A stretch of 64,000 nucleotides of DNA from an uncultured Chloroflexia bacterium (GCA_963705905.1 OY970123.1:134919-198918), one strand, 5' to 3'. Positions 10,905 to 41,364 are shown, counted from the first letter of the stretch. The notes: generated by a model from the sequence alone, not told the origin. Made by a program: numbers and translations.

Positions 10905-10928
10905 CATCGGAGCTAGCAATAATTAGTA

Positions 10929-11246: not shown

Positions 11247-11347
11247 TTTGAAAATTCCTGCAATTCAAAATATATATTCAGATCAAGTATTGCACAGACA
11301 ACTGCCCGGTTTAATGCCCATTAGGCCAGGAATACTTACCAATTTGG

Positions 11348-13057: not shown

Positions 13058-13118
13058 GGGTTTTCTCCCTGTTCAAAACCTCCGCCAGCGAAGCCTGCCA
13101 AAGCCCTGGCGGATTTCA
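13055..13118. repeat. Leader repeat copy A: ~64 bp, inverted relative to copy B at 26875..26936
   Basis: cacgggttttctccctgt...tccgccagcgaagcctgccaaagccctggcgga matches the reverse complement of 26875..26936. Contains an 8-bp stem hairpin (tccgccag/ctggcgga). Confidence 0.75.
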
Positions 13119-13381
13119 ATATAAAGGTCCTTTGCTTATCGACCCGTGAACAATATATATCTGATCGTGATTGAGATAAATAGAGACTTAGTCCTTTTCC
13201 TTATAGCCCAAAAGTACTTTTACACTAAAGTACTAGGATGGGGATAGTATTAAAGTCCTGGAGTTTATAGATCTATTTAGTACAAAAGTACTGGTCGAAT
13301 ACGATGATTAAGAAGAAAGCACCACTTACGAAAACTCGTGGAGTATATCGGTTGGAAGAGGCAAATCAAATAAGAAGTCTT

Positions 13382-14827: not shown

Positions 14828-14886
14828 ATTTTACAGACTAAATAACAGATTATTGGCCCTGCCACGGCTGTTCTACCTGTCTTATC

Positions 14887-17151: not shown

Positions 17152-17246
17152 CCAAAAAACCTTGTTCTTTCACGTACTAATCATCGGTCGGATAATGTCC
17201 AAAGTTTGAACACTAGAATTAACATTATCACTTGGTTCGTTTGACC

Positions 17247-18371: not shown

Positions 18372-18404
18372 TAGATGAGAAATCTTTTTTATATAAATGG
18401 AAAG

Positions 18405-19265
18405 TCAGGATTTACCGATCAACAATATGTCTTGATACGATAAGCCATCGCGTCTTCCTGACCAAGTCCCATATTTTATTGATTCTCCAGGCACAAGGCG
18501 CAGACCGTTTTGGGATAATAACCGTAATATATAATCTTCGCTGTAAGCTACAGCCACTTCAGGGCGCGTCTTATATTGATATCGCCAAATATCATCCCCA
18601 AAATTAAAGTCAATTTTATTCAAACCATTAGATTGTTGTTTATTCTGCTCTTGGTTAAGCAGGAAAAAAGTGGCAACACATCTTCCTTTATTTGATAGTA
18701 AACGTCGTATCTCTTTCAAATAACTATCAACTTCGCTCGGTCGCATGTGCGTAAAAACTGATTTAAGAAGTATTATATCAAAAGCCCCCTTTTCGAATGG
18801 AAAAGTGAATTCTTCGGCTGCATACTTTCCATTAGGATTGTATGCTCTATTTTTTACATTAATATGGGCGAAAGTAAAATTTTGATAGTTACTACTTATT
18901 TTCTTTTGACACCACAATATCGAGTCTCGATGAATATCCACACCAACATACTTCCCATCTTTATCTAAATAGTCGATTAATTCGAGCGCCATTAGGCCGG
19001 GCCCGCATCCGATATCCAATATCTGTTCATTTGGGAGAAGATGGCACATCAACTTTAGATAGCCGGTAAATTCTGCTCCTGAATGTCGGAAGCTATCTAA
19101 TGGACCGGCATACCTTCTCAAGAGTAATGGCGGGAGCTTGTGCTCACCATTGATAATCCGCGAAAGGTAATCAATTGGTTCGGCTGCAATAAGTGCAGCG
19201 GACCTCAGGGCTATGCCAATTTTAAGTAAACCATGTGGCATTTTTTGTAGCGATAATTGTTTCAT
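18405..19265 (-). CDS. Class I SAM-dependent methyltransferase
   Basis: ILDIGCGPGLMALEL motif I, 286 aa. Located inside the glycan cluster. Confidence 0.75.
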   Translation of the reverse strand: MKQLSLQKMPHGLLKIGIALRSAALIAAEPIDYLSRIINGEHKLPPLLLRRYAGPLDSFRHSGAEFTGYLKLMCHLLPNEQILDIGCGPGLMALELIDYLDKDGKYVGVDIHRDSILWCQKKISSNYQNFTFAHINVKNRAYNPNGKYAAEEFTFPFEKGAFDIILLKSVFTHMRPSEVDSYLKEIRRLLSNKGRCVATFFLLNQEQNKQQSNGLNKIDFNFGDDIWRYQYKTRPEVAVAYSEDYILRLLSQNGLRLVPGESIKYGTWSGRRDGLSYQDILLIGKS

Positions 19266-19398
19266 AATGATCCTACTTGACGTGATAATAAACTCGTTAT
19301 GGAATCCCGTTTCTATTAAACCGCTATTTTAGATTATTATGGATACGGCTAACTTTTTTATCTGAATTTTCCAGCCTCAGTGGCTCCCTCCCGTTTAG

Positions 19399-20562
19399 CT
19401 ATTGTTTTAGTAATAATTGACTAAACAAAATATTATATTTTTCGGTAATAAAATCCCAGTTATATTCTTCTGCTATCCTTTTAGCATACCGGTTAGCTAT
19501 ATTTTTTAAGTCGACCTGATCACTTTCCAGCGTCTCGATGATGCTTGCCAAACTATCCTCATCCTGAAAGTACAATCCGCCATCTTCTAGGATTTCCCTA
19601 TGGAAAGGGACATCATACGCAATGATGGGTCTCCCGAATGCCATTTGTTCAACTAACGATGGATTGGTACCTCCCAGTCGGTATGAATGAATGTACGCGT
19701 AGCAATTCTTTCTGAGAATGTGCCATGGTTTTTTGTCCCATATTGAGCTTATTAATATTATTTTGGGGTAGCCACGCGCTAATTGGCGCAGTCGCATGGC
19801 GTATCTGTCTTTTTCCTGGAAATTGCCGGCAATAACCATTGATTTGGCAGATTTAGATCTCTTAAATCCTTCTATTTGCCTATGTATATTATTCTCAGCA
19901 ACTACTCTGCACATTGTTAAGTAGTATTCTCCAGCGGTTAAACCATATTGCTGTAAGACTTGATTTTCTTCCATTGCCGTAATATCTAAATTGGGAGACC
20001 GTTCTGACCCGTAGGCTATGAATACCACATTCTGGGCATGATAACGTTTATCGAGGTAATCCTCAATTGCTCGTGAATCCGCAATAACAGCGTGTGATAA
20101 CTTGACAGACATCCACTCCATTAATTTCATATACCATGATAGCGCGACTGCCAACGGCTTCCATCCTGGAGCAAGATACTGTTTTCTTATGAGCGGCCGT
20201 TTCCATTCTATTCCATCTGCATTTATGACTACTGTTTTACCGAGCAGTCTGGGCAATATCGCCGCCACGGCGCCATAATCAAGCACGTAATATACCAGAT
20301 CAATTTTGGGGCATCTTATCTGAAGATGGATGGTGGCCAAAATCTCGTTCAGAGCAGGTACTGTAAATGTCTTGCCTTCGATGGCCGGCGTGTGAATCCT
20401 GGTAACCCCCTCATATTTATCCATTCCAAATTTGCGGGAGTTACATGTAACATAAACCTCATAACCTCGCTGTGCTAGTCCTGGCGCTAGCTCCGAGATA
20501 AAGGTCTCGGCTCCGCCATATTTGGCTGGTATGCCTCTGGCACCAATGATAGCAATCTTCAT
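19399..20562 (-). CDS. Glycosyltransferase (GT4-like, DUF1972-type N-terminus)
   Basis: MKIAIIGARGIPAKYGGAETFISELAPGLAQRGYEVYVTC is typical of the WbuB/rhamnosyltransferase-like GT4 subgroup. Confidence 0.7.
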   Translation of the reverse strand: MKIAIIGARGIPAKYGGAETFISELAPGLAQRGYEVYVTCNSRKFGMDKYEGVTRIHTPAIEGKTFTVPALNEILATIHLQIRCPKIDLVYYVLDYGAVAAILPRLLGKTVVINADGIEWKRPLIRKQYLAPGWKPLAVALSWYMKLMEWMSVKLSHAVIADSRAIEDYLDKRYHAQNVVFIAYGSERSPNLDITAMEENQVLQQYGLTAGEYYLTMCRVVAENNIHRQIEGFKRSKSAKSMVIAGNFQEKDRYAMRLRQLARGYPKIILISSIWDKKPWHILRKNCYAYIHSYRLGGTNPSLVEQMAFGRPIIAYDVPFHREILEDGGLYFQDEDSLASIIETLESDQVDLKNIANRYAKRIAEEYNWDFITEKYNILFSQLLLKQ

Positions 20563-20832
20563 AATTCCTTTTCCTTATGATTATTCCGCATTTTTGTGCC
20601 AACCGTGGCAACAAAACACTCTTAGGGTAAGCTTGTCTATTAATTAAATTAATCTACTCTATCGTAGCCAACCTTAGTGCCTTTGTATTTATCAATCGGC
20701 AGTAGATAGCTGGAATAGAATTCTCCTCGCCTTTCTCATCCGAGCGATCAGCTGCAAATAGCCTTCTATATAGGCCGCGAAACGGGCAGATGTATCTTAT
20801 TGATGGTCTAGATTAAAGGGGAGCAGGCAGCC

Positions 20833-21702
20833 TCAACATAGGACGCCGATTTTTTTTAAATATTTTCGCAGTCCTTCTTCCCAATGGGGCATTATATCCA
20901 TATTCAGCTCTTTCAATTTGCTATTTTCCAGAACAGAGTATTTTGGCCTAGCTACCTTGCCTGCAAATTCATTCGGGTCCGCAACTAGAAGGTTGACTTG
21001 TGTTCCTGTTAGCTGGAATATCTTCGCTGCGAATGTGTACCAAGAACAGCTTCCTTGCGCTGTGACGTGATAAAGTCCATAGTGCCCTACTTTGCTCAAT
21101 TCAACGATTTGTTGGGAAATATCTTCGGTAAACGTAGGGGTTAGCACCTCATCATCGACAACCCGTACTTCCTTTCTTTCCTTTGCTAATTTCAGCATCA
21201 TCTGTATAAAATTGGTTCCCTTTTTGGCTCGACATGGATTGGTTCCATATAATCCTGAAACCCTGAACACAAAATATTTTTTTGCAATAGATCGTATAAA
21301 ATTCTCTCCACAAAGTTTACTATTTCCGTAGATATTTATTGGGAGTGGATAGTCAGTCTCAATATATGGAGTTTTTTTCTTTCCGTCAAAGACATAATCA
21401 GTACTAATATGGAATAACACAAAATCGAGCTCATTAGCCAACAGAGCCAGATTTCTTGCTCCTATCCCATTCACTTCAAATGCTTTAAGCGGCATCGTCT
21501 CACATGCTTCGACATTATGCATGGCTGCAGTATTTACCAGCAAATGGGGTCTAGTTTGTTCAAATTTAGCTTTTGCCAAATTGAAATCAGTAATATCCAA
21601 AACATCATGATCAAATGGGATGACCTCATGGCCACTATTTGAAAACGCTGTGCAGACATCACACCCTAATTGTCCGTTGGCGCCTGTTACCGCAACCCTC
21701 AT
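20833..21702 (-). CDS. rfbD: dTDP-4-dehydrorhamnose reductase
   Basis: MRVAVTGANGQLG...YHISTDYVFDG...YGNSKL. RmlD substrate-binding domain, 289 aa. Confidence 0.8.
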   Translation of the reverse strand: MRVAVTGANGQLGCDVCTAFSNSGHEVIPFDHDVLDITDFNLAKAKFEQTRPHLLVNTAAMHNVEACETMPLKAFEVNGIGARNLALLANELDFVLFHISTDYVFDGKKKTPYIETDYPLPINIYGNSKLCGENFIRSIAKKYFVFRVSGLYGTNPCRAKKGTNFIQMMLKLAKERKEVRVVDDEVLTPTFTEDISQQIVELSKVGHYGLYHVTAQGSCSWYTFAAKIFQLTGTQVNLLVADPNEFAGKVARPKYSVLENSKLKELNMDIMPHWEEGLRKYLKKIGVLC

Positions 21703-21747
21703 AGCATTTAACCTTCAACTCTAATGATACGTGACTGCTATCCGATT

Positions 21748-22716
21748 TTAGGCTCGACCTGCTCTATTCAGCTCCTTAAAAATTTTTATATTATAGTATT
21801 TCGGGTTCTCCATATCTTTGAACTTATCCATATTTTCAGCAAGATTTCGAACCGTATCCTTAACATTAAATCTAGGATTGAAACTCAACACATTTCGTGC
21901 TTTTTCAGACGTTACCTTATAGTTTCTGAAATCCTCTATATGCTTAATGTTAAGCCTGGCAGTGATGCCGAGATGTTCTTTAACCCCTTCTCTGACATAA
22001 TCAGCCACTTCACCTACCGTATAATTCCCGTACGCTATATTAAATATGCCTGATACATTATGATCCACTTCAACAGCACGTATGTACGATGAGGCTGCAT
22101 CCCTGACGTCTAGGATAGGTCTCCAGATTGAAGGGTTATTTACAGTAATTATTTTCTCAGTGACAGCGGTCTTGAACATGGCATTCACAATAAGGTCTAA
22201 ACGCATCCGCGGGCTATAGCCGGATACGGTGCCTTTTCGTAACGCAATGGTTGAGAATTTATCATCCTGAAGCCTGAGACAAGCAAATTCACCCTGGAGT
22301 TTGGAAATTCCGTAAGGGTAGTTTGAAGTAGCGAGCGCCGACTCATCACACAGTACGTCCACAGAATAACCATAAACCGAGCATGAGCAACCGTAGATAA
22401 ATCTTTTGACACCTGCTCGCTTTGAAACGTAGCTGAGATAGGCTGGCAATGCGGCATTGTCAACGAAATTACTGGCCGGAGAATATTCTGCCATAGGGTC
22501 ATTAGAAAGCCCCGCAATAAATATGACCTGGTCATATCCGGAAAGATCCTTTTCCTCCAAAGTCATAATTTCCTTCCGTATCACCTTGATCCCATCAGGC
22601 ATATGGTTCCCAAACCATAGCAGGTCAACTACATCGATCTCATAGCCACGCTCAATAAGTTGTGGAACTAATACCGAACCTAAATAACCGGCTCCGCCTG
22701 CAACAAGAATCTTCAT
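21748..22716 (-). CDS. NAD-dependent sugar epimerase/dehydratase (SDR extended family)
   Basis: MKILVAGGAGYLGS Rossmann motif, YGISK catalytic motif, 322 aa. Confidence 0.75.
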   Translation of the reverse strand: MKILVAGGAGYLGSVLVPQLIERGYEIDVVDLLWFGNHMPDGIKVIRKEIMTLEEKDLSGYDQVIFIAGLSNDPMAEYSPASNFVDNAALPAYLSYVSKRAGVKRFIYGCSCSVYGYSVDVLCDESALATSNYPYGISKLQGEFACLRLQDDKFSTIALRKGTVSGYSPRMRLDLIVNAMFKTAVTEKIITVNNPSIWRPILDVRDAASSYIRAVEVDHNVSGIFNIAYGNYTVGEVADYVREGVKEHLGITARLNIKHIEDFRNYKVTSEKARNVLSFNPRFNVKDTVRNLAENMDKFKDMENPKYYNIKIFKELNRAGRA

Positions 22717-22868
22717 AAAACCTCACATTATTTCTTTTGAACAATTCCTCAAGCATGGTGTCTGCTTTGCTTCCGTACATCGTTTTGTTTTCACAAGTGC
22801 TACTTTCTTACTTAATGATCGCTTAAGAATTTTAAGGGAAATCTCAACAACAGATTATAAGTGTTTTT

Positions 22869-23435
22869 TTAATAACTAAAATTTTGGGATTCTATCCTTT
22901 TTAGCCATTCTGTCAATGTTTGAGCAGATTGATCCTTCTGTGTTACAGTTGGATTTTTTATGGGCCAATTGATTCCAATCTCAGGATCATTCCAACGAAT
23001 CCCTGATTCACATTTATTGTTATAGACGCCAGTACAAAGGTATTGTACCTCGGCATAGTCGCTCAACACGCAAAACCCCCGGGCAAATCCAGCAGGAGCC
23101 CAAACCTGGATTACGTTTTCTTCGGATGCCACAGTTCCAAACCATTTTCCAAGCGTGGGAGACCCTTTTCGTATATCGACCGCAACTAGGAATGCCTTTC
23201 CACGTGTAACGCGCATGAGCTTTCCCATTGGCGGATCCCATTGGAAGTGAAGCCCACGCAAAACTCCTTTAACCGACCCAGAGTGATTCAGCTGAACAAA
23301 TGCATCTGGAAGTCCCAGATTCTTAAACTGATCCTGCCTGTAGACTTCGAAAAAAAAACCTCGTTCATCTCGAAATATTTCCGGAATTACTATGACCACT
23401 TCGTCAATCGATGTTTTTTCAGTGGTTAACTCCAA
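22869..23435 (-). CDS. rfbC: dTDP-4-dehydrorhamnose 3,5-epimerase
   Basis: IPEIFRDERGFFFEVYR...RGLHFQ. Cupin RmlC signature, 188 aa. Confidence 0.85.
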   Translation of the reverse strand: MELTTEKTSIDEVVIVIPEIFRDERGFFFEVYRQDQFKNLGLPDAFVQLNHSGSVKGVLRGLHFQWDPPMGKLMRVTRGKAFLVAVDIRKGSPTLGKWFGTVASEENVIQVWAPAGFARGFCVLSDYAEVQYLCTGVYNNKCESGIRWNDPEIGINWPIKNPTVTQKDQSAQTLTEWLKRIESQNFSY

Positions 23436-23550
23436 TTTTTTACCCTCCTAAACTGACTGCTTATTCTCATTGAAGCTTGGTACAGCAATTGCTTTTTTGG
23501 ATAGTCTCCCTACCAATGTTTAAGATATGCGAAAGGGTTGGACCCAATGT

Positions 23551-24306
23551 CTAGCAATGCCCATTTATTCGTTCCTTGATAATGACCTTCAGTATTTTCC
23601 ATCCATCTTTAAAGGTATGAAGTTTTCCTTTCCCGGAGCGCCTTTTATGTTCCCAGCACGGTATCTCAACTATTTTCAGCCGTTTTTTCCGGGCTTTAAT
23701 AAAGAGCTCTATCTCCATCTCAAACCCATCAGTCTTAAGGTCCATATCAGATATAGCGTTTTTCCAGAATGCGTTGTAACCGTAGGTGATATCAGTGAAT
23801 TTACCTCTGTAGAGCATATTTGCCAGCAATGTAAACATTGTGTTACCAAACATCCTTATTATCGGCATATCCTTTGTGCCGCCGCCAAGAACGAAGCGGG
23901 ACCCTTTGGCAAAATCAAAGCCGTTGTAGAGTGGAATTATAAATAGCGGTAATTCAGAAATATTCATTGATCCATCAGCATCCATTATGCAAACTATATC
24001 GCCCCGTGCTGCCTTTATACCCGCCTTTATAGCGTCCCCTTTGCCCTTTCCTTTCTGATAAATGACTCTCAAATCCGGATACAATTGTCTGGCAACCTCG
24101 ACAGTATCATCAGACGAATTGCCATCGATCAGCATAACTTCATGAATATAGTCGGGCACTTCAGGTAGAAGATATTTCAAATTGGAGGATTCGTTTAATG
24201 TAGGTATCATGAGAGTAACTTTGAGCGCATTCTTAGTAAACGCTTTATATAATAGTTCAGAATAAAATCTACTATCCGTTTCTGCAGGCCGTGTTAGCGT
24301 ATCCAT
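23551..24306 (-). CDS. GT2 glycosyltransferase, polyprenyl-phosphate sugar synthase-like
   Basis: VTLMIPTLNESSNL...LIDGNSSDDT...IMDADGS, 251 aa. Confidence 0.8.
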   Translation of the reverse strand: MDTLTRPAETDSRFYSELLYKAFTKNALKVTLMIPTLNESSNLKYLLPEVPDYIHEVMLIDGNSSDDTVEVARQLYPDLRVIYQKGKGKGDAIKAGIKAARGDIVCIMDADGSMNISELPLFIIPLYNGFDFAKGSRFVLGGGTKDMPIIRMFGNTMFTLLANMLYRGKFTDITYGYNAFWKNAISDMDLKTDGFEMEIELFIKARKKRLKIVEIPCWEHKRRSGKGKLHTFKDGWKILKVIIKERINGHC

Positions 24307-24336
24307 GATATGCCCCCTGTACCTTCAACTGTAAAT

Positions 24337-25245
24337 TCATGAATTTAATCTACTGGATATAAAACTGAATGTTTTTTCGGCCTGTTCTTTGCTAGATACG
24401 CCGACAGCTACACCATAGATGTTAGGTAATCCATCAAGATAGCTCCAGGCCTGTTCCAGCGTAATCAAACCGCCAGCCAAAATAGCGAAAATGATAATAT
24501 CAAATCCATCTGCATTGTTTAGTGCCTTCTCTGCCTCTGTTTTGGATGGATTCATTTGCATGCCGATTGCATTAAGGGGAGTTGTTAACATTATATTGTC
24601 CGGCTTCATATCCCATTGCCTGAATTTTTCCAGTAAGAAGGGAAGATTGCGTGTGTGAAAACCGGGCCTAATATCTAATTCATTCATCGCATCTACGTGT
24701 GAATTAAATAACCATTGCATATCCAGCGCCAACGCCATATCCGTCACTACCTCATGAATAAAAATGCAATCGAGTTCTGCTTTTTTACCGGCGGCGGCTT
24801 TAATTCTGCCCGCCTCATAATAAGCGTACGCTTTAAAAGCAGATCCGGGATCAACAGTCAAAGCTCCTTTAACCCCGTTGACGATCGCTTTATAATTTCC
24901 CGATAGCACAATTTGCGTGGCTATCATCCTTGCCAAACCCACTATTCCTCCTAGCGAAACCGCCAATCGCACATATTCATAAGCATAAGGAATGAATGCG
25001 TAGAGTTTGGGTGAGGAACTGAATTGATATTTGCGAAGAAGGCGCAAAATGGATAGTGTTGTTTCATCTACTGTAAACGTAAATCCTCCGGCGCCGTTAT
25101 TAATAGCTGCCGCCACTATTCCGGCAGCATATTCCGGCTCCCGGATTGCCTGGCCCCTTTGATTCGCCCTATCCTGGGAAACGTGGCTTACTCCATGGAA
25201 TGGATTATCGCCAACCAATGATAATTTCCGTTTTGAATCAGCCAT
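24337..25245 (-). CDS. Hypothetical protein in the sugar-modification cluster
   Basis: 302-aa ORF with coding-like composition. Overlaps the start of the downstream oxidoreductase by 8 nt, suggesting co-translation. No motif recognised. Confidence 0.4.
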   Translation of the reverse strand: MADSKRKLSLVGDNPFHGVSHVSQDRANQRGQAIREPEYAAGIVAAAINNGAGGFTFTVDETTLSILRLLRKYQFSSSPKLYAFIPYAYEYVRLAVSLGGIVGLARMIATQIVLSGNYKAIVNGVKGALTVDPGSAFKAYAYYEAGRIKAAAGKKAELDCIFIHEVVTDMALALDMQWLFNSHVDAMNELDIRPGFHTRNLPFLLEKFRQWDMKPDNIMLTTPLNAIGMQMNPSKTEAEKALNNADGFDIIIFAILAGGLITLEQAWSYLDGLPNIYGVAVGVSSKEQAEKTFSFISSRLNS

Positions 25246-26245
25246 GATGCCCCATTTTTAATATTTTCTCGATAATAAGGTCCGTGTTCGCCGCGCACGA
25301 AAAATCGGAACTGGTTGCATTCCCACTATTTAACGAATCAACAAAGTGTCTGTCCTCATGATAATAGTCAGATTCAGCCAGAAAGAAGGGCACGCCACCT
25401 TCGAGCTCAGGTCTCATTTTATTTACAGATTCCTTATTTGTATTTGAATGGAACTCAAATAGGTCTTCCGTAACATTAATTTTGCCCAGTGTGCCAATAA
25501 CATTAATGCCTATTTCGGGTAATCGATAGTTTGCCCTGGACCAGGAAGCATCGAATGTACCTTCACTGCTGTTACTACAGTTAATTTTTACATGGGCCGA
25601 ATCAACATAACTCAGCTGAGCATTATTTTTCATGGTTAATTCTGCACTTAAAACATCCATGTCTCCGAGCATCCATAACATCATGTCCAGAGCATGGCAA
25701 CCTATGTCACGAAGGACGTCTCCCCGGGCGAATGCCTGGGGGATAAAGTCCCCGTTTGAGCAGAAATCAGATGAATAAGAATGTCCCGCAAATGATGTGA
25801 CTTTCCCTAATTTCCCTTCATCTATATAGGATCTGGCCATTTTAAATGTTGGTGCGAAGCGTTTCATATAGCCGACCATGGTAATGCCCTTGTTTTGTTC
25901 TGCCAGTTCGCAGAGCTCGTTTGATTGGAGATGATCAAAGGTAAACGGTTTTTCGACAAATATATTGTTGGAGATACCTTTTTCATAAATCGTAGTAATA
26001 ACAGGATAGTGAGTGGCTGCCGGCGTAGTGACATACACAGCATCAATTTGAGCGCCTTTAAGCTCCTTTACGTTTTTCACTAATGGGATTCCGGATAGCG
26101 CCCGCTCTCCGAACATGCGAATTAGGCTGTTAGTTTCACAAATGCAAGAGATTTGAACATCCGGCATGCTGCTCAAAATACTCGCATGCAGGAGTCCCAT
26201 TTTCCCCAGGCCGACCAATGCAATCTTTTTCAATCTGCTGTCCAT
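25238..26245 (-). CDS. Gfo/Idh/MocA-family NAD(P)-dependent oxidoreductase
   Basis: IALVGLGKMGLLHA N-terminal Rossmann fold, 335 aa. Typical sugar dehydrogenase architecture. Confidence 0.8.
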   Translation of the reverse strand: MDSRLKKIALVGLGKMGLLHASILSSMPDVQISCICETNSLIRMFGERALSGIPLVKNVKELKGAQIDAVYVTTPAATHYPVITTIYEKGISNNIFVEKPFTFDHLQSNELCELAEQNKGITMVGYMKRFAPTFKMARSYIDEGKLGKVTSFAGHSYSSDFCSNGDFIPQAFARGDVLRDIGCHALDMMLWMLGDMDVLSAELTMKNNAQLSYVDSAHVKINCSNSSEGTFDASWSRANYRLPEIGINVIGTLGKINVTEDLFEFHSNTNKESVNKMRPELEGGVPFFLAESDYYHEDRHFVDSLNSGNATSSDFSCAANTDLIIEKILKMGHHG

Positions 26246-27055: not shown

Positions 27056-28411
27056 TTATTGCCAGCCGCCTGTTTTGAGGTCCAGCATCACATTATTGTC
27101 CGGCGGCGGCAGGTCTTTCCAGAGGCTTTCAACAAGGATCTTCTTTAACTGGACTCCCAGCCAGGCCCGCAGGCTGAGCCCGTTTTCCTGTATGGCCGGC
27201 TGCCCGGCAGGCAATTTTTCATCTCCTGCCATGTGGGCCTCCACAGCTCCGGCTACGTCTCGTGCGATCCCGGCTGCCTCGACGCTGTCCACGCCGTAGG
27301 GGGTAATCATGGCCGTTATTCCCGCTGTCAGGCCTTTGTCTAATTGTCCTTTGGCATAGCCCTGTAAATCGACGGGATGCGATGGTATCGATTGTATATG
27401 CACGCTGCGTATGGCGGCCTCCTGTGACCCATCGATATTTATCACCCGGTAAGGGCAGGTATAAGTAACCAGCGAGCCGGTCTCCACGTCGAAAAGGAAT
27501 TTATTGTCCGGCCAGTTCCTCTCTGTGATGTCCTGTGCGTGGAAGTGCCCTGTGAATACCAGGCGCACGTTATATGCAGCAAATAATCTGGAAACCGCCT
27601 GGTAATTTTCTATCACAAATTCGGGGAAATACGTGGCCATGCCGTCGAAATGCTCCGTCACCGGATGATGCTCCATGGCGATCACAGCCTTGCCGCTCTG
27701 GGCCGCCTTGATCAGCATGTCTTCTATCCACCCCATCGTCTGCGGGCTAAACCTGCCTCCTGTGACCGTTTTTGTCTCCCCTACCTTGCCCCTGTATCTG
27801 GCCGAGTCCAGGGCCAGCAGCCAGAGCCCTTCCTGGGGCTCAGCTACATAGCTGAGCGAGGCAGGGTCCCGGTAAAGGGCATCCTTATACCCGAAGTCGG
27901 CGTAAATCTGTGCAAAGTCTTCGGCCGTGACATTGCGGATGCGGAGCTGAATGTTGCCGGCATATTCGAAGGCGCTGGCATTTTCTATATCATGGTTGCC
28001 GGGTATGACGTAAACTTTTTTACCGCTGGCCTGCAACTGCCTCAAATACTGCGCTACAAGCTCGTGCGAGGCGCGGTCGCCGTGGTCGGTCAGGTCGCCG
28101 GCCACCAGTACGAAGCTGACATTTTCAGTGTTGATTTCCCCGACCGCTGTCTGCAATATCTCGGCGCTCTCCCTGGTCAGCTTGTAGTCACCCGCAATAT
28201 AATTCTCAAAGGCTTTTCCCTCCGTTCCGAGGTCGGGATCGTAGGTATGCGGGTCGGTCATGACAGCGAAATTTACCGCAGGATAGGCCGGGGGCTTATT
28301 CAGCAGCGATCGCAGATTGGGATCGGTCTCATACTTCGGCGGCTGCGCGCTGCAGGCGGCAATCGCCGGTATCAGTAGGGCGCACAGCGCCAGGAAAATC
28401 GCTCTCTTCAT
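27056..28411 (-). CDS. Secreted metallophosphoesterase (calcineurin-like)
   Basis: Signal peptide MKRAIFLALCALLIPAIAAC. Motifs GDLTDHGD, GNHD, GHFH. Confidence 0.75.
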   Translation of the reverse strand: MKRAIFLALCALLIPAIAACSAQPPKYETDPNLRSLLNKPPAYPAVNFAVMTDPHTYDPDLGTEGKAFENYIAGDYKLTRESAEILQTAVGEINTENVSFVLVAGDLTDHGDRASHELVAQYLRQLQASGKKVYVIPGNHDIENASAFEYAGNIQLRIRNVTAEDFAQIYADFGYKDALYRDPASLSYVAEPQEGLWLLALDSARYRGKVGETKTVTGGRFSPQTMGWIEDMLIKAAQSGKAVIAMEHHPVTEHFDGMATYFPEFVIENYQAVSRLFAAYNVRLVFTGHFHAQDITERNWPDNKFLFDVETGSLVTYTCPYRVINIDGSQEAAIRSVHIQSIPSHPVDLQGYAKGQLDKGLTAGITAMITPYGVDSVEAAGIARDVAGAVEAHMAGDEKLPAGQPAIQENGLSLRAWLGVQLKKILVESLWKDLPPPDNNVMLDLKTGGWQ

Positions 28412-28659
28412 TTCTTATGATAATACGAGATTTTTGTGCTAAAGGTAAACATTTTGGATGTTATAGTGCGGCAGGTTCGACGTCATATGTAAACCGATTT
28501 GACATGCGTGATACAATTATGAGAGTATAAAGTAGTCTGATGGTCGTATTGACAAATAATGGGGGGAAATTTGGTGGAACGTTGCCGGTATGACCGTCTG
28601 CCACACTTGTATTCCGAGGGCCATATTTATCCCATATTTACCTGCGTACAGGAGGCAAC

Positions 28660-31600
28660 ATGCGGATTAAGTTCCCTGCCATTATAAAAGTGATCGCCGG
28701 CATGCTGGCCGTCGCCGTATTTATCATCCCTGCTAATATGGTTTCACCTGCAACCGTATCCGCGGACCCGGGTATTATGAGATGGGATACCGTCCTGACG
28801 CCCGGGTACCTGGCGAATAAGTGGGATATCGATAATCTGCATGGCCTGGGCGCCAACATGGGCCAGGGCAGCGAGATCATCGACATGGCTGCCGGCAACG
28901 ACGGCAAAACCGTTGTCGCCATCGTCAGGATGTGGGTGCCGGACAATACCGGTGGTATAGCTTCCCCGGGCGGCGCTTACAAAAACATTGTACTTATGTC
29001 TTTTAACGGTGGAATATCTTTCTCGGACTCTCTCTACCATACTCAATTTCCCAATGCCTTAACAGCCCCCAATTTTTTTGAAGTTGAGATGGCCACCGAT
29101 AATCCCCTGGCTATGATACTGACCTCCGAGGACTTCTCGGGGACTCATACCGGTCCCAGGTTAGTGTGGGAAACAGGTTGGGTGCTCGGATATGCGCCCT
29201 GGAGCGTGGTCTTTGACGGCACAAGTGCCCTGTCAGCCGGGGAGACCATCCGCTGTGCAGATGTCTCACCCGACTACGGCGGCTACCGTGACGTTGCTTT
29301 CGGCACCGAGGGTCCAACGGGCGGACGTTGGGGCGCCATATCGAGCAAGCCTTACGGCACCACCCAGGTCCAGCTCAATGCCAACGGCACGCCGCCCCAA
29401 AACTTCGGCACTGCCAGCACTTCCGGAATCGATTATGAGGCCCTCAGGTTTTCTCCGACTTACGGCGGCGATGCTTCGGTAGCCCTGGTATATGCTGATG
29501 TAAACGCCACTTATTATAATGTAGCTTTTCGCGATATTAACCAGAATACCACTGTAAACTATGCTTTCACCTCCCCCGGTATCGAGGTTAAGAACCCTAC
29601 TTCCGCCCCGCTCAGCTCGCCCAACTGGTCGCAGTTGAACAGGACTGACCTGGAACTTCCCTCCGACTTCTCGGGCCAGTCCTCCTCCCTGCGCAGGGTC
29701 TATATAAGCCTTGACGCCTTTGGGTCCAAAGCGGTTGGAAGCTGCGAGGACGGAATTTACAGGATAGACGATACTACACCCTACGTTTTAATGGATACCA
29801 CCACCACTCCGGATAAGTCCATATATAGTATTGCTTATTATGGCACCTATGCCTCGGGCAAGCTGCTGGCCGGCGAGCGCATGGGCCAGCCCTGTGCGGC
29901 TACCGTGCCGACCTGGTTTACGGACTCCCCGACCACCTGTCCGATTCCCTGCTGGTATCCCGCGCTCAAGCCCGCTACCGGCGCCGGCAACCAGGGGGCA
30001 TGCAACACCGGGGCCAAGAACGGCGCCGGCTCGGCCGTTGTCCGCTGGAATGGCGACGGCTCGCTGGGCCTGGTAGCTACGGGTTCTCTACCTGATACAG
30101 TTTATGCCAATCAACCTGGACGCGCGGGCGGCGGGGTTGAATTGCCCGGCACACCTACAGCTACTGCTGCCGGCAAGGGACTCTGGTACCAGATGCAGGG
30201 AGGAAGCGGGGCATCTTTCGTTCCACCTGTAGCACTCGCAGTTGGCTTTGATGCCGTGAATAATGATGAATCGGCCTTTGCCGTCTCCCGCAATAACGGC
30301 GAGACCTGGAACGAGCTGGCCATTATCGATACTACCATCGACTGGTTCAACGATGTAGCCGTATCCCCCGATTGCACGACCATCTACCTGGCTTCGGTCA
30401 ATGAGAACACTGGAATAGGCTGCAACCAGTTCGACAGCGTATGGCGCAGCACTATTAACCCCAACGTCGCAGCGCCTCTACCTGCTATCCCGCCTCTGGG
30501 CACTTACTGGGAGCGTGTCTTCTGCCATGTGACCGCCGGCAACTGCAGTCTTCAACAGTCCAAACTGCCCATACTCCGCGTAGTGGAATCCTGCACCGAT
30601 AAGCCTACCGGCGAGATCGTCGCCTGGGCAGCTCAGTATGCCAACGCAACCAGCAGCAGCACCAGCGGTGGCGTGATGGCCTGGTCGCCCGACTACGGCG
30701 ATTACTGGGCCAGCATTACCCCAAGGTATCCCGTACAGGACTTCGCCTTTGAAACAAGCACCACTATGTACGTATTAAGCGCGGACGGCATTGTCCAGAG
30801 GCTCCCCTACACCGGCACCTCCTGGACAACGAATTTGCCCAACTACGATACGCAGCTTCTTTACGGTCACACCATCGCAGCTGTCCCCGACGGAAAGGTC
30901 CTGGTCGGCGCCGGCGTGAATGCTCCTTATCCGATGGCTTACTCCCTGGATAAGGGCGTCACTATGAGTGTCCTCGCAGATCCTATTGCCGGGCACGGCA
31001 ACGAACATGTCATCTTCGATGTGGACTTCGCTAACAACAGCTTCATCTACATGGCCGATGACAGTGTTTTTAATAACTCGCCGAACTTCACGGTCAATAA
31101 CGGCGGCACCGCAGTCGGCACTGTGTACCGCAATACCATCCCGGCCAATACCAGGTGGGTTGACGGAGACATGATGAGCGCGGCCAATGGCAACGGCTAT
31201 GTCTTCTCTGATGACACCAGCCTGTGGTGGTCGACCGGCGGCTCCAACAATCCTCCGCACATAGTCGGCCAGTTCGGCCTGGTCCAGGCCTGGACGGGCG
31301 ATCCCCAACCGGCGCTTTACAGCGCCCATGACAACGTCACCAACAGCAGTGGCTATCAAGATAGTGCCGTCTGCCGCACACTCAAGCCTCGCGACGGCAT
31401 GCCCAAACCGGGCATCAAGTGGGCCTGTCTCGATATATTCGCTCCGCTCAATCAGAAGAACGTATTCTTCACACTTGAGCCGACTTCGCTCAAGGCCTGC
31501 GGTTGCTGCACTCTCGACACCAACACCACCCTTTATGCCATCGACAACGAGCGCTACGGAGCCCTGGCTGACCTGGCAGGCCGCTGGAACTTCCATCTCC

Positions 31601-32529
31601 TGGATACGGCTGCGAGCGCATGGAACGATAACCCCGGTTATACTCCTACCGCGAACCAGGGTATGCTCTGGGCATACACGGACTGTCTGGCCAAGAAAGG
31701 CCCGGTACTCAAGACCCCGGCTGACCAGTTCCTGGTCGGCGCCGACCCCGTCACCGGCCGCAACCAGCAGATCGACCTCGCCTGGGAACAGCTCTGTCTT
31801 TCCATCTGGTATCAACTTCAGATAGCTAAAGACAAGGATTTCACCCTGAGAGTCAACCCCGCTGTCAACTGGGGCAACGGCTCCACCGGCGTGATCTCCG
31901 CCGTTACGGGCTCTCTGCTGATGCAAATGGATACAACTAACAACACCAGCCCTGCCGCCTGGATACCTCCCGGATCTCTTCCTGAAGCAGGCGCCATCTA
32001 CTACTGGAGGATCCGCTCGGCCAAATCGGCTACCACCCAGATCGCTGACAGCCCGTGGTCCGAGACCCGCAGCTTCACCATCAAAGCAGGCTTCGTCGTC
32101 ACCTCCAACTACCTTGGCGTAGAGCTGCTCAGCCCGGGCAACAGTGCCACCGGGATAACAACCAAACCGACCCAGTTCTCATGGAGCCCCTGGCAGGATG
32201 CTACCAAGTACGAGTTCGACCTGGCCAAGGATTCCGAGTTCAAGCAGATGGTTGTCACCGCCAACACCACTACGACAGCTTATCAATACGCCAATGCCCT
32301 GGACTATAATGCCGTCTATTTCTGGCGTGTAAAGGCTGTCGAGGTCAACGGCCAGAACATCCCGAGCGATTGGTCGGCCACCTTCACCTTTACGACAGAA
32401 ACGGTCCCGATCATACCTCCGCCCCCCACGCAGGCCCCTATTCCCGTCTGGGTATGGGTGCTTATGGCGCTGGGCAGCATTATCGCCGTCGGCATCCTCT
32501 TCCTTATCATGAGGACCCGGCGCATTTAA
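28660..32529 (+). CDS. Giant cell-surface (S-layer-like) protein with BNR/Asp-box beta-propeller repeats, Fn3-like domains and a C-terminal TM anchor
   Basis: 1289 aa with N-terminal signal/TM. Asp-box-like repeats (SRNNGETW, SPDYGDYW). Two Fn3-like C-terminal modules (YYWRIRSA, YFWRVKAV). Ends PPPPTQAPIPVWVWVLMALGSIIAVGILFLIMRTRRI. Numerous N-x-S/T sequons. Confidence 0.7.
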   Translation: MRIKFPAIIKVIAGMLAVAVFIIPANMVSPATVSADPGIMRWDTVLTPGYLANKWDIDNLHGLGANMGQGSEIIDMAAGNDGKTVVAIVRMWVPDNTGGIASPGGAYKNIVLMSFNGGISFSDSLYHTQFPNALTAPNFFEVEMATDNPLAMILTSEDFSGTHTGPRLVWETGWVLGYAPWSVVFDGTSALSAGETIRCADVSPDYGGYRDVAFGTEGPTGGRWGAISSKPYGTTQVQLNANGTPPQNFGTASTSGIDYEALRFSPTYGGDASVALVYADVNATYYNVAFRDINQNTTVNYAFTSPGIEVKNPTSAPLSSPNWSQLNRTDLELPSDFSGQSSSLRRVYISLDAFGSKAVGSCEDGIYRIDDTTPYVLMDTTTTPDKSIYSIAYYGTYASGKLLAGERMGQPCAATVPTWFTDSPTTCPIPCWYPALKPATGAGNQGACNTGAKNGAGSAVVRWNGDGSLGLVATGSLPDTVYANQPGRAGGGVELPGTPTATAAGKGLWYQMQGGSGASFVPPVALAVGFDAVNNDESAFAVSRNNGETWNELAIIDTTIDWFNDVAVSPDCTTIYLASVNENTGIGCNQFDSVWRSTINPNVAAPLPAIPPLGTYWERVFCHVTAGNCSLQQSKLPILRVVESCTDKPTGEIVAWAAQYANATSSSTSGGVMAWSPDYGDYWASITPRYPVQDFAFETSTTMYVLSADGIVQRLPYTGTSWTTNLPNYDTQLLYGHTIAAVPDGKVLVGAGVNAPYPMAYSLDKGVTMSVLADPIAGHGNEHVIFDVDFANNSFIYMADDSVFNNSPNFTVNNGGTAVGTVYRNTIPANTRWVDGDMMSAANGNGYVFSDDTSLWWSTGGSNNPPHIVGQFGLVQAWTGDPQPALYSAHDNVTNSSGYQDSAVCRTLKPRDGMPKPGIKWACLDIFAPLNQKNVFFTLEPTSLKACGCCTLDTNTTLYAIDNERYGALADLAGRWNFHLLDTAASAWNDNPGYTPTANQGMLWAYTDCLAKKGPVLKTPADQFLVGADPVTGRNQQIDLAWEQLCLSIWYQLQIAKDKDFTLRVNPAVNWGNGSTGVISAVTGSLLMQMDTTNNTSPAAWIPPGSLPEAGAIYYWRIRSAKSATTQIADSPWSETRSFTIKAGFVVTSNYLGVELLSPGNSATGITTKPTQFSWSPWQDATKYEFDLAKDSEFKQMVVTANTTTTAYQYANALDYNAVYFWRVKAVEVNGQNIPSDWSATFTFTTETVPIIPPPPTQAPIPVWVWVLMALGSIIAVGILFLIMRTRRI

Positions 32530-32858
32530 TTTGTATTGAAATAGGCTGGCCTAGGATTCCGAGTTCAAGCAGATGGTTGTCACCGCCAACACCACTACGA
32601 CAGCTTACTAATACCAGAATGCCCTGGACTACAATGCCGTCTATTTCTGGCGAGTAAAAGGCCGTAGAGGTTAATGGCCAGAACATCCCGAGCGGATTGG
32701 TCGGCCACCTTCACCTTTACAACAGCATCGGTCCCGATCATCCCTCCGCCACCCACGCAGCCCCCTATCCCCGTCTGGGTATGGGTGCTTATGGCGCTGG
32801 GCAGCATTATCGCAGTCGGCATCCTCTTCCTCATCATGAGGACCCGGCGCCTTTGACG
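32530..32858 (+). pseudogene. Degenerate tandem duplicate of the 3' end (~300 bp) of the surface-protein gene
   Basis: 32551..32858 aligns to 32229..32529 at ~90% identity, with an in-frame stop (ttactaatacc) and frameshifts. Only a 60-aa ORF remains, re-encoding the TM anchor. Confidence 0.6.
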
Positions 32859-32859
32859 C

Positions 32860-33125
32860 ATTTGATTCGTTTTGATTCGTTTTCGGTTCGTTTTAAACAG
32901 GCGTCGTATCTGGTTTATGTTGAAATAGGCTTTGTTTTTGGTTTGTTTTGAAATCGGTTCGTTTTGATTCGTTTTTGATTCGTTTTAAATAAGCGTCGTA
33001 TCTGGTTTGTGTCGAAAAAGATTCGTTTTTGATTCGTTTTAAATAAGCGTCGTATCTGGTTTGTGTCGAAAAAGATTCGTTTTTGATTTGTTTTTTAGAT
33101 ACAAGTTGTAGCTGATTCGTTTCTC
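32860..33125. repeat. Tandem repeat array of ~54-bp units
   Basis: The unit gattcgtttttgattcgttttaaataagcgtcgtatctggtttgtgtcgaaaaa occurs twice perfectly, flanked by degenerate copies. GATTCGTTTT sub-repeats throughout. Confidence 0.7.
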
Positions 33126-33132
33126 GAAATAA

Positions 33133-33170
33133 AAAAGGGGGCGGCCTCGTGCCGCCCCCTTTCTATTTAG
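33133..33170 (+). terminator. Rho-independent terminator
   Basis: aaaaaaggggGCGGCctcgtGCCGCcccctttctattt: GC-rich 9-bp stem plus T-tract. The A-tract on the other side makes it potentially bidirectional. Confidence 0.7.
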
Positions 33171-33399: not shown

Positions 33400-34020
33400 T
33401 TGAAAAATGTAATCTATGTTGCAATCACCCTGACTATAGCAGCTGCTGCGCTCTTTTGCTTTCAGATGGCATTCAAGGCATTCGAAGTATTTGATATCTC
33501 GATGGAGCCCACCTATAAGACCGGCGATTACATTTTCGTCAATAAATTGGCCTATATTTACGATGCCCCCAAGCGGGGAGATGTAGTGGCCATATACTCA
33601 CCGGAAAGCACGGCGCAACTTTCTCTCAATCCTTTTGAACAGCAAAATTCGTCACAATACATTAAACGTATTATTGCTCTGCCGGGCGATAAGGTAGAGA
33701 TAAAAGATCAAAAGGTATATGTTAACGGCCAGCCGGTTGATGAGCCATACTTATTGGAACCCTGTGACTATGACTATGACCAGCAGACTATCCGTCAAGG
33801 CAGCTATTTTGTTCTGGGCGACAACAGGAACCACAGCGATGACTCACACAGGGGCTGGCTGAGTGCGCGGTCGGACATTATCGGTAAAGTGTGTCTATGC
33901 TACTGGCATGCGGATTACCCTGATATCCATGTTGTGCTGATACCTGCCTTTTTCCTGGTTGTGGGGGCTTTTTCCAAGGATTCGATTTTCGGCTTTTTAA
34001 GAAAACTAGTCAACAGATAA
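33400..34020 (+). CDS. lepB: Signal peptidase I (S26 family)
   Basis: GDYIFVNKLAY, GDVVAI, RIIALPGDKV, YFVLGDNRNHSDDSHRGW boxes B-E. Apparent TTG start. Confidence 0.8.
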   Translation: MKNVIYVAITLTIAAAALFCFQMAFKAFEVFDISMEPTYKTGDYIFVNKLAYIYDAPKRGDVVAIYSPESTAQLSLNPFEQQNSSQYIKRIIALPGDKVEIKDQKVYVNGQPVDEPYLLEPCDYDYDQQTIRQGSYFVLGDNRNHSDDSHRGWLSARSDIIGKVCLCYWHADYPDIHVVLIPAFFLVVGAFSKDSIFGFLRKLVNR

Positions 34021-39609: not shown

Positions 39610-41364
39610 ATGGGTCATAAACTCAAACGCTCGGGACCTGAGGCCTTTAGATTCACGACCCTTCGTCTGATAGCGGTATTTATCACCGTCCTCGTCGGTA
39701 TACTCTTCATGTTTCAGGCGGTTCGGGCCGATTGTCCCTCGTGTATCAGTCACCAGTATTTCGGCACAGTCTCGCACAATGGCGTTCCTGTTGGGCAGGG
39801 TTATACTGTCTATGCCGTGGTTAACGGCGAACAGGTCGCTTCTACCACCACAGATTCCAACGGGCAATGGGGTAATACCGAACCGTTTATAGTGAGCGCG
39901 CCTTCGGGAGCCTTTGTGGAATTCTACGTTGGCGGAGAGTACATGGGTGAAGCCGCCAGTTGTATTCCCGGGCCGTCGACCAAACTCGACTTCACGGTGT
40001 CAGTTTTAACGACGCCCGGCACCTCTAATGCTGCTGCTAATACAGGTACTTCCATAACTGCGTCTATTCTTGGACAGGGATATTCGTTTGTGCTCACCAA
40101 TGGTATTCTCACTGCGGCTAAAACGCTTAGCAGCGCCGACCAGAGATTTAGCTTGAGCTTTCCAACGAACTCCGTTGTAAATACCAGTGGGGCCAGCCAG
40201 TTCGTTGTCAGTGCTGAGCAGTCACCGCCGGTACCACCACCCGGCGTAAAACTTATACAGGCCTACGGTTTTTCTCCTGACAGTATTATTATCAGCCCAG
40301 CAGCAGCCGTGACCTTAAAGTACGATGCCGCCGGTCTGCCGCCGCAGGTTGATGAGTCTAACCTTTACATAGCTCAATGGAGCGGTGTTTCGTGGATATC
40401 CCTATCATCAACTGTCAACACCGTGGCCAGCACAGTTACTGCACAGCTAAAGTCTTTATCCACCGTTGCCATTTTAGGCAAAATCAATCTGCAGCGTCCA
40501 CCCGAGGTGATTGGCGCTTTTATCTTAGGAAAAGCAGATAATGTCACCATCAACAATGGCATACTTACTGCCGGCCGGGCTTTGGAGAGCGCCGATGGCG
40601 GGATAATGCTGGATTTTGCGGATAATACTGCTATCAACCTGCAGGGCGGACAGCAAATGACGGTCCTTCAAATAGCTTCCCCTCCGGCACCTCCCGCCGG
40701 CTCCGGTCTGATCGCCGCTTATAGCTTTGGACCCGAAAATAGCAGCTTCAGTCCGCCGTTCAACCTGACGATAAAATATGATCCTTCGCAAATAACTCCT
40801 GATATGACGGAGTCCGGCCTTTACATATCTGCCTTTGCCGCTTCTGAGAACTGGACGCAGCTGCCATCTACTGTAGATATCCAGCATAAAATGGTCACCG
40901 CTCAAATAGCTCATTTTTCGATATATGCATTGCTGGCGAAAGAGGCCACTAATACAGTACCGCCTCCGGCAGCATTCACAGTATCTGATCTTACGGTCAT
41001 ACCGCAGACGGCCGGCGCAGCGGAGACCGTTACAATATCAGCAAGGATAGTGAATAATGACGAGATTGAGGCTACCCGTGATGTTGTCCTTATAGTTAAC
41101 AACAAAGAGGAGGCGAAACAGCAAGTCACCCTTCCCGGCGGTGGCAACCAGACTGTTAATTTCACGCTTAGCAGGAATGAGCCTGGTATTTATAGTGCTA
41201 GTATAGATAACCTGACTGCCGATTTTACTGTGAATGCGGTTGCGTCTGATAAGAATCAGTCGGCCCAGCCCGGCCTTCCGCTACTGGGTGCCATCGCTTT
41301 TTGCGGGTTGCTGGTGGTTATATTCGTCATAGTACAAATCGGGAAACAGCGATCGCGCTATTGA
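39610..41364 (+). CDS. Cell-surface protein with N-terminal TM/signal and C-terminal TM anchor
   Basis: 584 aa with beta-rich repeats. Ends QPGLPLLGAIAFCGLLVVIFVIVQIGKQRSRY (motif, hydrophobic helix, basic tail). Confidence 0.6.
   Translation: MGHKLKRSGPEAFRFTTLRLIAVFITVLVGILFMFQAVRADCPSCISHQYFGTVSHNGVPVGQGYTVYAVVNGEQVASTTTDSNGQWGNTEPFIVSAPSGAFVEFYVGGEYMGEAASCIPGPSTKLDFTVSVLTTPGTSNAAANTGTSITASILGQGYSFVLTNGILTAAKTLSSADQRFSLSFPTNSVVNTSGASQFVVSAEQSPPVPPPGVKLIQAYGFSPDSIIISPAAAVTLKYDAAGLPPQVDESNLYIAQWSGVSWISLSSTVNTVASTVTAQLKSLSTVAILGKINLQRPPEVIGAFILGKADNVTINNGILTAGRALESADGGIMLDFADNTAINLQGGQQMTVLQIASPPAPPAGSGLIAAYSFGPENSSFSPPFNLTIKYDPSQITPDMTESGLYISAFAASENWTQLPSTVDIQHKMVTAQIAHFSIYALLAKEATNTVPPPAAFTVSDLTVIPQTAGAAETVTISARIVNNDEIEATRDVVLIVNNKEEAKQQVTLPGGGNQTVNFTLSRNEPGIYSASIDNLTADFTVNAVASDKNQSAQPGLPLLGAIAFCGLLVVIFVIVQIGKQRSRY

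Follow-up and report, generated by a model that had tools for sequence, protein, structure and literature searches.

The 1289-residue protein encoded at 28660–32529 (+ strand, stop codon included) of a 64 000-nucleotide stretch of DNA from an uncultured Chloroflexia bacterium (GCA_963705905.1, OY970123.1:134919–198918; hereafter the window) is, on balance, best read as a type I membrane-anchored cell-envelope protein of Dehalococcoidia that belongs to the DET1407 superfamily and is likely to form, or to contribute to, the outer protein layer of the cell. Its sequence and a predicted model point to an architecture that most likely consists of a double-propeller head, an Fn3-type stalk and a C-terminal transmembrane (TM) anchor. 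Within the class Dehalococcoidia, several members have surface layers (S-layers) and no peptidoglycan, which leaves a protein envelope as their entire cell wall; to our knowledge, the only characterisation of the main envelope component of the class is one 'putative S-layer' annotation in Dehalococcoides.

A first-pass annotation of the window had described the open reading frame (ORF) as a giant BNR/Fn3 surface protein rich in N-x-S/T sequons and next to a glycosylation cluster. The ORF was confirmed: it lies on the + strand and its ATG is preceded, at a distance of 4 nt, by the Shine–Dalgarno sequence AGGAGG (28650–28655). An identical protein (P0001), from a 67-kb ENA contig, is already on record.

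Relationship to DET1407

DET1407 is among the most abundant proteins in proteomes of Dehalococcoides cultures, is treated as an S-layer protein and has a transcript that tracks the main reductive dehalogenase (PMC5102406, PMC6646388). S-layers have been seen in Dehalococcoidia by cryo-electron tomography (cryo-ET; PMC10284905). Three peptides, YFGNQWNQTALCK, AGIIPAPTTASDAYK and VAYGTTTGTETTATTLK, have been assigned to Q3Z6N3/DET1407 (PMC6646388). Published S-layer peptides were back-translated and the resulting patterns scanned against metagenome contigs; the first pattern gave no match in these contigs and the second led to contig L081, which encodes a 1001-residue protein containing all three peptides (the DET1407-type protein). 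A chimeric query of six published S-layer peptides found no match in the protein database, and when the published peptides were scored against the family hidden Markov model (HMM) only one beat 99% of shuffled sequences; the short BLAST matches to conserved motifs served as a lead only.

The C-terminus of the L081 protein (…IPAYIWLIVAVGAVLTIAVIVLIVRTRRVV) mirrors that of the surface protein. BLASTP aligns the two with 33% identity over 145 residues, comprising the last immunoglobulin (Ig)-like module, the linker, the TM helix and the RTRR tail, with an E value of 1e-17, and hhalign relates the surface protein to the DET1407-type C-terminal module with a probability of 98.6%. For the remainder of the chain the connection is made by three intermediates, P0163, P0184 and P0222, which match the surface protein over about residues 11–1288 (E values of 1e-75 to 1e-114) and the Dehalococcoides protein over residues 30–999 (E values of 1e-14 to 1e-18). 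Comparison of the profile of the surface-protein group (A1) with that of the Dehalococcoides-type group (A3) by hhalign gave a probability of 100% over 1009 columns. Judged from these alignments, the surface protein almost certainly belongs to the DET1407 superfamily, as a distant member related over its full length. The homology supports the earlier suggestion of a major surface or S-layer-type protein, to which the probable type I topology and the three DET1407/Q3Z6N3 peptides of the relative add; the search against S-layer proteins of Chloroflexi that had been proposed thus recovered a DET1407-type relative, significant at the C-terminus.

Both proteins combine a signal peptide, BNR/sortilin-type propellers, Fn3/Ig_Rha78A_N modules, a TM helix and an RTRR tail. 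The surface protein differs in being 288 residues longer, with inserts (e.g. residues 484–533), and in its degenerate Asp-boxes, where Asn replaces Asp; beyond the C-terminal module the identity is so low that BLAST finds no significant direct match. Look-ups of sequence clusters returned no informative names for the relatives or for the L081 protein. On L081, the DET1407-type gene lies beside a gene for a 406-residue protein with a C-terminal TM helix and RRRK tail, and beside rho (7–1227, + strand, and 5553–6752, − strand); no sugar genes were found within the 6.7 kb present.

Overall architecture

Hydropathy analysis found only two hydrophobic segments in the protein, residues 2–35 and 1258–1287. 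The first corresponds to a predicted signal peptide (residues 1–35; 28660–28764), as had been claimed earlier, with a probable cleavage site at VSA|DPG; the sequence VSADPG is kept in the family consensus of the homolog alignment. The second contains a predicted C-terminal TM helix (residues 1263–1284) followed by a basic tail, RTRRI (residues 1285–1289; 32446–32526 together), and is preceded by a Pro-rich linker, TVPIIPPPPTQAPIP (residues 1248–1262; 32401–32445). This anchor, which was absent from the first-pass description, is kept across the family; the Dehalococcoides protein ends in …IVLIVRTRRVV. None of the known C-terminal sorting signals in NCBIfam (PEP-CTERM, PGF-CTERM etc.) was found in it. 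The same type of TM helix and basic tail is present in other nearby surface proteins, namely a 584-residue protein of the window and the 406-residue protein on L081.

Residues 40–1239 were modelled with AlphaFold2 from an alignment of 99 sequences. The model is all-β, with a mean predicted local distance difference test (pLDDT) score of 83.4 and a predicted template-modelling score (pTM) of 0.83. The model, Foldseek comparisons and a motif scan together delineate a first predicted β-propeller (residues ∼40–501; 28777–30162) with 27 predicted strands in about seven blades and a second (residues ∼534–962; 30259–31545), also with 27 predicted strands. They are separated by a low-confidence insert or linker (residues ∼484–533; 30109–30258), with pLDDT values below 50 at model residues 478–488, that is missing from the Dehalococcoides-type relatives, where it appears as a gap in the hhalign comparison of A1 and A3. 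A Cys-containing connector (residues ∼963–1044; 31546–31791) follows; it is partly of low confidence, with dips in pLDDT and short helices in the model. Its Cys1009 is invariant and is followed by Cys1046. Two Ig/Fn3-like modules complete the extracellular part. Module 1 (residues 1045–1143; 31792–32088) is defined by the β-strands of the model and by weak PDB matches of Ig-V type to residues 1050–1141, and module 2 (residues 1157–1247; 32128–32400), of the Ig_Rha78A_N type, by a sub-threshold Pfam match and by its similarity to the DET1407-type protein. The two are related to each other, and both align with the same Dehalococcoides module.

The top Foldseek matches are tandem seven-bladed propellers (Elp2, Pwp2, GH74 and Aip1) and ectodomains that combine propellers with Fn3 domains (Sevenless and ROS1). 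TM-scores are 0.2–0.35 and the sequence identities to the tandem propellers 7–12%. The earlier claim of BNR propellers and two Fn3-like modules holds in substance, through the model, Foldseek and the homology of the modules, and fails at Pfam thresholds. The Pfam BNR score is 16.7 bits (cut-off 27), with weak BNR and F510_1955 matches at residues 533–579; Ig_Rha78A_N matches residues 1163–1246 with an E value of 3e-5 and 24.6 bits (cut-off 27.4); Pfam fn3 gives no match in the protein; and a PDB sequence search gave marginal Ig/Fn3 matches only. The motif scan found no strict Asp-box (S-x-D-x-G-x-T-W) in the protein, two relaxed ones, SFNGGISF (residue 114) and SRNNGETW (residue 543), against a chance expectation of 0.04, and two loose ones, SPDYGDYW (residue 676) and one at residue 997.

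Relatives supply the family-level matches. P0222 exceeds the Pfam thresholds for both BNR and Sortilin-Vps10 and P0184 that for Sortilin-Vps10 only, and the DET1407-type protein attains the BNR cut-off and exceeds that of fn3. An HMM of module 2 retrieved 824 copies in 234 relatives, including P0145, in which Pfam calls both fn3 (E value of 2e-84) and Ig_Rha78A_N. The surface protein is thus predicted to have a β-propeller fold, homologous to BNR/sortilin-type proteins that pass family thresholds, and its two β-sandwich modules are homologous to bona fide Fn3-type repeats.

A working model can be drawn from this architecture. The protein would be exported by the Sec pathway and its signal peptide cut at VSA|DPG. 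A rigid head of two BNR/sortilin-type propellers would stand on a stalk formed by the two Fn3/Ig-like modules and the Pro-rich linker, and the stalk would be fixed in the cytoplasmic membrane by the single C-terminal TM helix, with RTRR as a stop-transfer tail. By homology and architecture, such proteins would most likely assemble next to one another into an outer protein layer or a part of it. If the protein is glycosylated, a neighbouring pathway with a Wzx-type flippase and a DUF2206 protein (see below) is the candidate.

Archaeal S-layer proteins offer a parallel. Some combine β-propellers with Ig-like (PKD) domains, e.g. SlpB of Methanosarcina mazei with its YVTN propeller, and some archaeal S-layer glycoproteins are anchored in the membrane by a C-terminal TM segment and are N-glycosylated by AglB, an enzyme with a WWDxG motif. 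Shared with the surface protein are an all-β propeller head with Ig-like modules, anchoring directly in the cytoplasmic membrane without peptidoglycan and the proximity of candidate genes for lipid-linked glycans. The surface protein differs in that no sequence relationship was found, in that its propellers are of the BNR/sortilin rather than the YVTN type and in that the window contains no WWDxG.

Family, paralogs and a possible receptor function

A word-indexed protein search found 424 relatives, the best 120 of which are full length, 46–80% identical and all named 'hypothetical'. With phmmer, 3402 representatives were retrieved at E ≤ 1e-3 and 310 at E ≤ 1e-30. Some relatives are giants in which the Ig-like module is repeated up to 33 times, and all named sources are Dehalococcoidia or Chloroflexota. 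Among contigs representing one genome per species, 166 loci encode relatives; in the best 80 of these loci, 22 of the 41 assemblies hold two to four members. A distance tree divides the core lineage into three old paralog clades, to each of which single metagenome-assembled genomes (MAGs) such as fen_1075 contribute one member. The surface protein falls in a clade from uncultured Dehalococcoidia of peat, lakes and groundwater. Mean column identity in the homolog alignment is 48%, with many invariant Trp, Cys, Asp and Gly residues.

Several points weigh against an S-layer-type protein of the DET1407 superfamily. Only over the last 145 residues does a direct comparison with the Dehalococcoides protein reach significance, the rest being transitive or profile-based. 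The L081 protein is probably DET1407 on the strength of three exact peptides rather than an accession, and the S-layer role of DET1407 is itself putative, deduced from abundance and not from structure. The low Foldseek TM-scores suggest a match to the generic double-propeller fold only. Finally, conservation in the family is higher than is usual for an S-layer protein, and there are two to four old paralogs per genome, features that fit receptors, binding proteins or enzymes as well.

The most serious alternative, which we regard as possible but clearly the less probable, is a role at the surface as a receptor, an adhesin or a ligand-binding protein instead of a lattice subunit: the faces of the propellers would engage a substrate, a partner protein or an adjacent cell, and the paralogs would represent different specificities. 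The conservation, with its invariant Trp, Asp, Cys and Gly residues, and the two to four ancient paralogs per genome in distinct clades would suit such a function, as would the structural analogues, which include the Sevenless and ROS1 ectodomains and sortilin-type propellers. Propellers on an Ig-like stalk with a TM helix and a short tail also resemble integrin-like or sensor ectodomains. The homology to a very abundant Dehalococcoides envelope protein argues against it; moreover, a cytoplasmic signalling domain is lacking, the tail being five residues long, and no ligand-related gene is consistently linked, the neighbours varying by paralog clade.

Neighbouring glycan genes and the DUF2206 protein

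The region at 510–26245 consists almost wholly of glycan genes by Pfam and is divergent from the surface-protein gene. Its content includes GT4 and GT2 glycosyltransferases, epimerases, an SIS isomerase, a GHMP kinase, RmlC, RmlD, a methyltransferase, a Wzx-type flippase (13382–14827, − strand) and a 754-residue DUF2206 membrane protein (14887–17151, − strand); the sugar genes include some of rhamnose and heptose type. The G+C fraction at 10000–26000 is 0.38–0.43, compared with about 0.5 in the flanks and 0.54–0.58 in the surface-protein gene. This low G+C fraction, together with a gene content that is wholly different at the orthologous locus L001, gives the region the look of a variable island of surface-glycan genes that may have been exchanged horizontally.

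The surface-protein gene had been placed next to this cluster. The glycan genes are nearby but lie on the opposite strand, and a metallophosphoesterase gene and about 2.4 kb come between. The intervening gene (27056–28411, − strand), divergent from that of the surface protein, encodes a lipoprotein-type calcineurin-like metallophosphoesterase (Pfam Metallophos), copies of which, 78–81% identical, occupy the same position in L001 and L004. In the ortholog L001 the genes beside the metallophosphoesterase gene, for GT4, GT2, UDP-glucose dehydrogenase and epimerase, form a set different from that in the window. In a distant genome, about 13 kb separate the family member L068, which is 36% identical, from a DUF2206 gene of 53% identity, with an unbroken run of glycan genes at whose far end the DUF2206 gene stands, and in one paralog clade an epimerase and a 517-residue GT2 often occur within 10 kb. 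At some 70 of the 80 related loci no sugar gene is close by; the largest clade has thioesterase, radical-SAM, HAD and rhomboid genes as its neighbours instead. Linkage of surface-protein and glycan genes is thus recurrent and not a trait of the family.

Rhomboid protease genes lie within 10 kb of largest-clade paralogs at 16 loci, in the company of thioesterase, ARMT1-like, radical-SAM, MBL and HAD genes; the loci include L013, L014, L019, L021, L024–L027, L029, L032, L039, L042, L046 and L054. The proximity is remarked on because the C-terminus of the family, with a motif, a TM helix and a basic cluster, is laid out like a sorting signal; it may be plain synteny.

The DUF2206 protein was modelled with AlphaFold2 from 60 homologs (pLDDT 88.2, pTM 0.90). 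Of its 18 best PDB matches, 16 are catalytic subunits of oligosaccharyltransferases (yeast and human STT3, AglB of A. fulgidus and PglB of C. lari), and the other two are chains of AftA, a mycobacterial GT-C arabinosyltransferase that acts on glycans and matches equally well (E values of 2e-4 to 4e-2, TM-scores of 0.30–0.47). It shares with these enzymes a multi-TM GT-C fold and a small C-terminal soluble domain. It differs from STT3, AglB and PglB in having no WWDxG and in the loop context of its invariant acidic residues, Asp226 and Glu230. PDB sequence searches found no similarity to it and Pfam no STT3 match; in six frames of the window neither WWDxG nor an STT3 domain was found. Homologs also occur in MAGs of Desulfotomaculum and Syntrophomonadaceae, and a literature search for DUF2206 or cbdbA1368 found no papers. 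Going by the model, DUF2206 is probably a GT-C enzyme with an STT3-like fold and without the sequon-binding motif, whose acceptor could be a protein, a lipid or a glycan.

Glycosylation of the surface protein by the neighbouring Wzx/DUF2206 pathway is a possibility. In its specific form, the proposal would be that DUF2206 is an uncharacterised bacterial and archaeal GT-C family of oligosaccharyltransferases which, with Wzx, places a methylated, lipid-carried glycan containing rhamnose or heptose onto the DET1407-type protein in a non-canonical manner. We consider this doubtful. As DUF2206 has no WWDxG, the linkage would not be directed by sequons.

Three further proteins of the glycan region drew attention. 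A 642-residue multi-TM protein (8976–10904, + strand) ends in a jelly-roll resembling CBM_4_9 (weak Pfam match), and the same module is inserted in a secreted 569-residue protein (11348–13057, − strand), whose N-terminal half is paralogous to a secreted 402-residue ORF (1839–3047, + strand). No significant family assignment was obtained for any of the three. In L068, the family member is followed downstream by a gene for a homolog of the 642-residue protein with 50% identity. The 642-residue protein was considered as a PMT-like transferase on account of a 'DE' pair after its first TM helix, and the idea was rejected, with no profile, family or hhalign support.

Sequons

The first-pass annotation had stressed the N-x-S/T motifs of the protein. 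All of the motifs that it quoted are present (NQNTT at residue 294, NATSS at 662, NVTNSS at 892, NGSTG at 1073, NNTSPA at 1094 and NTTTTAY at 1202). Counting N-x-S/T with x other than Pro, and taking the expectation from shuffles of the protein's own residues, there are 17 sequons against 12.5 ± 3.2 expected (P = 0.105), so that 'densely decorated' is not borne out. Nor are they concentrated in the C-terminal third: the split by thirds is 5/5/7, and the probability of seven or more of 17 in that third is 0.32. The density of 1.32 per 100 residues is indeed 2.7 times the 0.50 of the 44 other ORFs in the window, a difference explained by a composition rich in these residues (6.2% Asn and 16.8% Ser plus Thr).

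Across 120 homologs, the ratio of observed to expected sequons is 1.16, which is below the ratios for two control motifs, D-x-S/T (1.43) and the reversed S/T-x-N (1.22). In the surface protein itself, D-x-S/T occurs 21 times against 11.9 expected. The larger excess of D-x-S/T suggests a structural preference for Asx turns, and Asx-x-Ser/Thr turns are common in these loop-rich β-proteins. Four sequons (Asn296, Asn892, Asn955 and Asn1094) are kept in 24–36 of 38 aligned homologs; the other 13 are not conserved, conservation being defined as a sequon in at least half of these homologs. Only two of 16 conserved Asn columns are sequons, and no column of the Ig-like module is a sequon in more than 10% of the 824 copies.

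In Dehalococcoides, the peptide YFGNQWNQTALCK contains the sequon NQT and is a routine target of multiple reaction monitoring (PMC6646388). Its published m/z of 815.377 agrees with the 815.3776 calculated for the unmodified form, so that the site is at least partly unoccupied.

It is improbable that the protein is an N-glycosylated S-layer glycoprotein whose sequons are occupied, through an oligosaccharyltransferase, by an oligosaccharide from the upstream cluster. Such a reading can draw on the 12 of 17 sequon Asn residues in predicted coil, on the density relative to the window, on the four conserved sites and on the proximity of Wzx, GT2/GT4 and rhamnose/heptose-type genes and of a GT-C protein resembling STT3, AglB and PglB. 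It is opposed by the insignificant excess over composition, the higher family ratios of both controls, the poor conservation of most sites, the lack of a preferred column in the module, the unmodified peptide and, as regards the enzyme, a window without WWDxG and a DUF2206 protein without STT3 or PDB sequence matches. The motifs are a by-product of an Asn/Ser/Thr-rich, loop-rich β-structure and not evidence of N-glycosylation, and modification of this protein at its sequons is unlikely. The sequon argument for a glycoprotein is therefore not supported, and it carries a general caution: counts of N-x-S/T are poor evidence of glycosylation in Asn/Ser/Thr-rich β-proteins, for which D-x-S/T is a useful control.

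Another surface protein of the window, the 584-residue Ser/Thr-rich protein mentioned above (39610–41364, + strand), has nine sequons, or 1.54 per 100 residues, and so is denser in them than the 1289-residue protein. It has a CARDB/Fn3-like C-terminal domain and a TM helix followed by KQRSRY, an anchor of the same type, and in L044 and L006 its homologs are encoded 4–5 kb upstream of family members.

Comparison with GH74 enzymes

Residues ∼40–962 are predicted as two consecutive propellers of about seven blades, as in GH74, Elp2, Aip1 and Pwp2; those proteins differ in having neither a membrane anchor nor an Ig stalk, and none gives a family-level sequence match. That the surface protein is a membrane-anchored GH74-type glycoside hydrolase, with two BNR propellers forming a cleft for extracellular polysaccharide, is highly improbable: the xyloglucanases 6p2k, 6p2m, 7kn8 and 6p2n are among the best Foldseek matches (E values of about 1e-11 to 1e-12), there are weak matches to the BNR-type 'F510_1955 family glycosylhydrolase' model and the neighbouring region encodes secreted glycosidase-like and CBM-like proteins, but the GH74 matches are no better than those to Elp2, Pwp2 and Aip1 (TM-scores of 0.2–0.35, identity of 11–12%), sequence searches of Pfam, NCBIfam and the PDB linked the surface protein to no GH family and the F510_1955 model of NCBIfam scores 14.8 bits against a cut-off of 175.

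The 3′ flank of the gene

Outside the protein, a decayed tandem copy of the last ∼103 codons (∼309 nt) of the gene is present at 32546–32854 (+ strand). It starts 17 nt past the stop codon, is 92–94% identical, is frameshifted by two indels and contains an in-frame TAA; it spans the second half of the last Ig module, the linker and the TM segment. Downstream copies in related loci were found only in L044 and L034 (two of 55), where they are weaker and 1–2 kb away. The ortholog in MAG UBA1162 is split over contigs L004 and L067, which overlap in the region of the 3′ copy. The copy may have arisen by recent duplication, may be the scar of a recombination event or may be an artefact of the assembly.

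Tandem repeats rich in GATTCGTTTTT (32861–33095) fill the 3′ untranslated region, with 2.4 copies of a 54-nt unit at 98% and additional shorter periods. A GC-rich hairpin followed by a T-tract (33137–33164, + strand), read from the sequence and missed by a consensus terminator scan, is likely to be the transcript terminator, about 610 nt past the stop codon. Downstream of the surface-protein gene, at a distance of 870 nt, comes the gene for a signal peptidase I (S26; 33400–34020, + strand). L067, the closest relative, has the S26 gene (1486–2106) inverted and only about 360 nt away, so that this interval has been rearranged. A riboswitch has been reported 5′ of the Dehalococcoides S-layer gene (PMC5102406); an Rfam search of the window found three tRNAs only and no detectable counterpart of it.

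Biological implications

Dehalococcoidia are abundant in sediments, peat and aquifers, and hundreds of 'hypothetical' proteins of 1200–1350 residues in their MAGs share what appears to be the DET1407 architecture of a double propeller, an Fn3 stalk, a TM anchor and an RTRR tail. The surface protein would provide a structural template for the Dehalococcoidia envelope that is testable by cryo-ET, and the family could serve as a lineage marker and a proteomic biomarker. The DUF2206 protein beside Wzx may be the more interesting lead. If the doubtful proposal of its action on the DET1407-type protein were true, these bacteria without peptidoglycan would have an archaeal-style S-layer, glycosylated and membrane-anchored, made by way of a new enzyme family.

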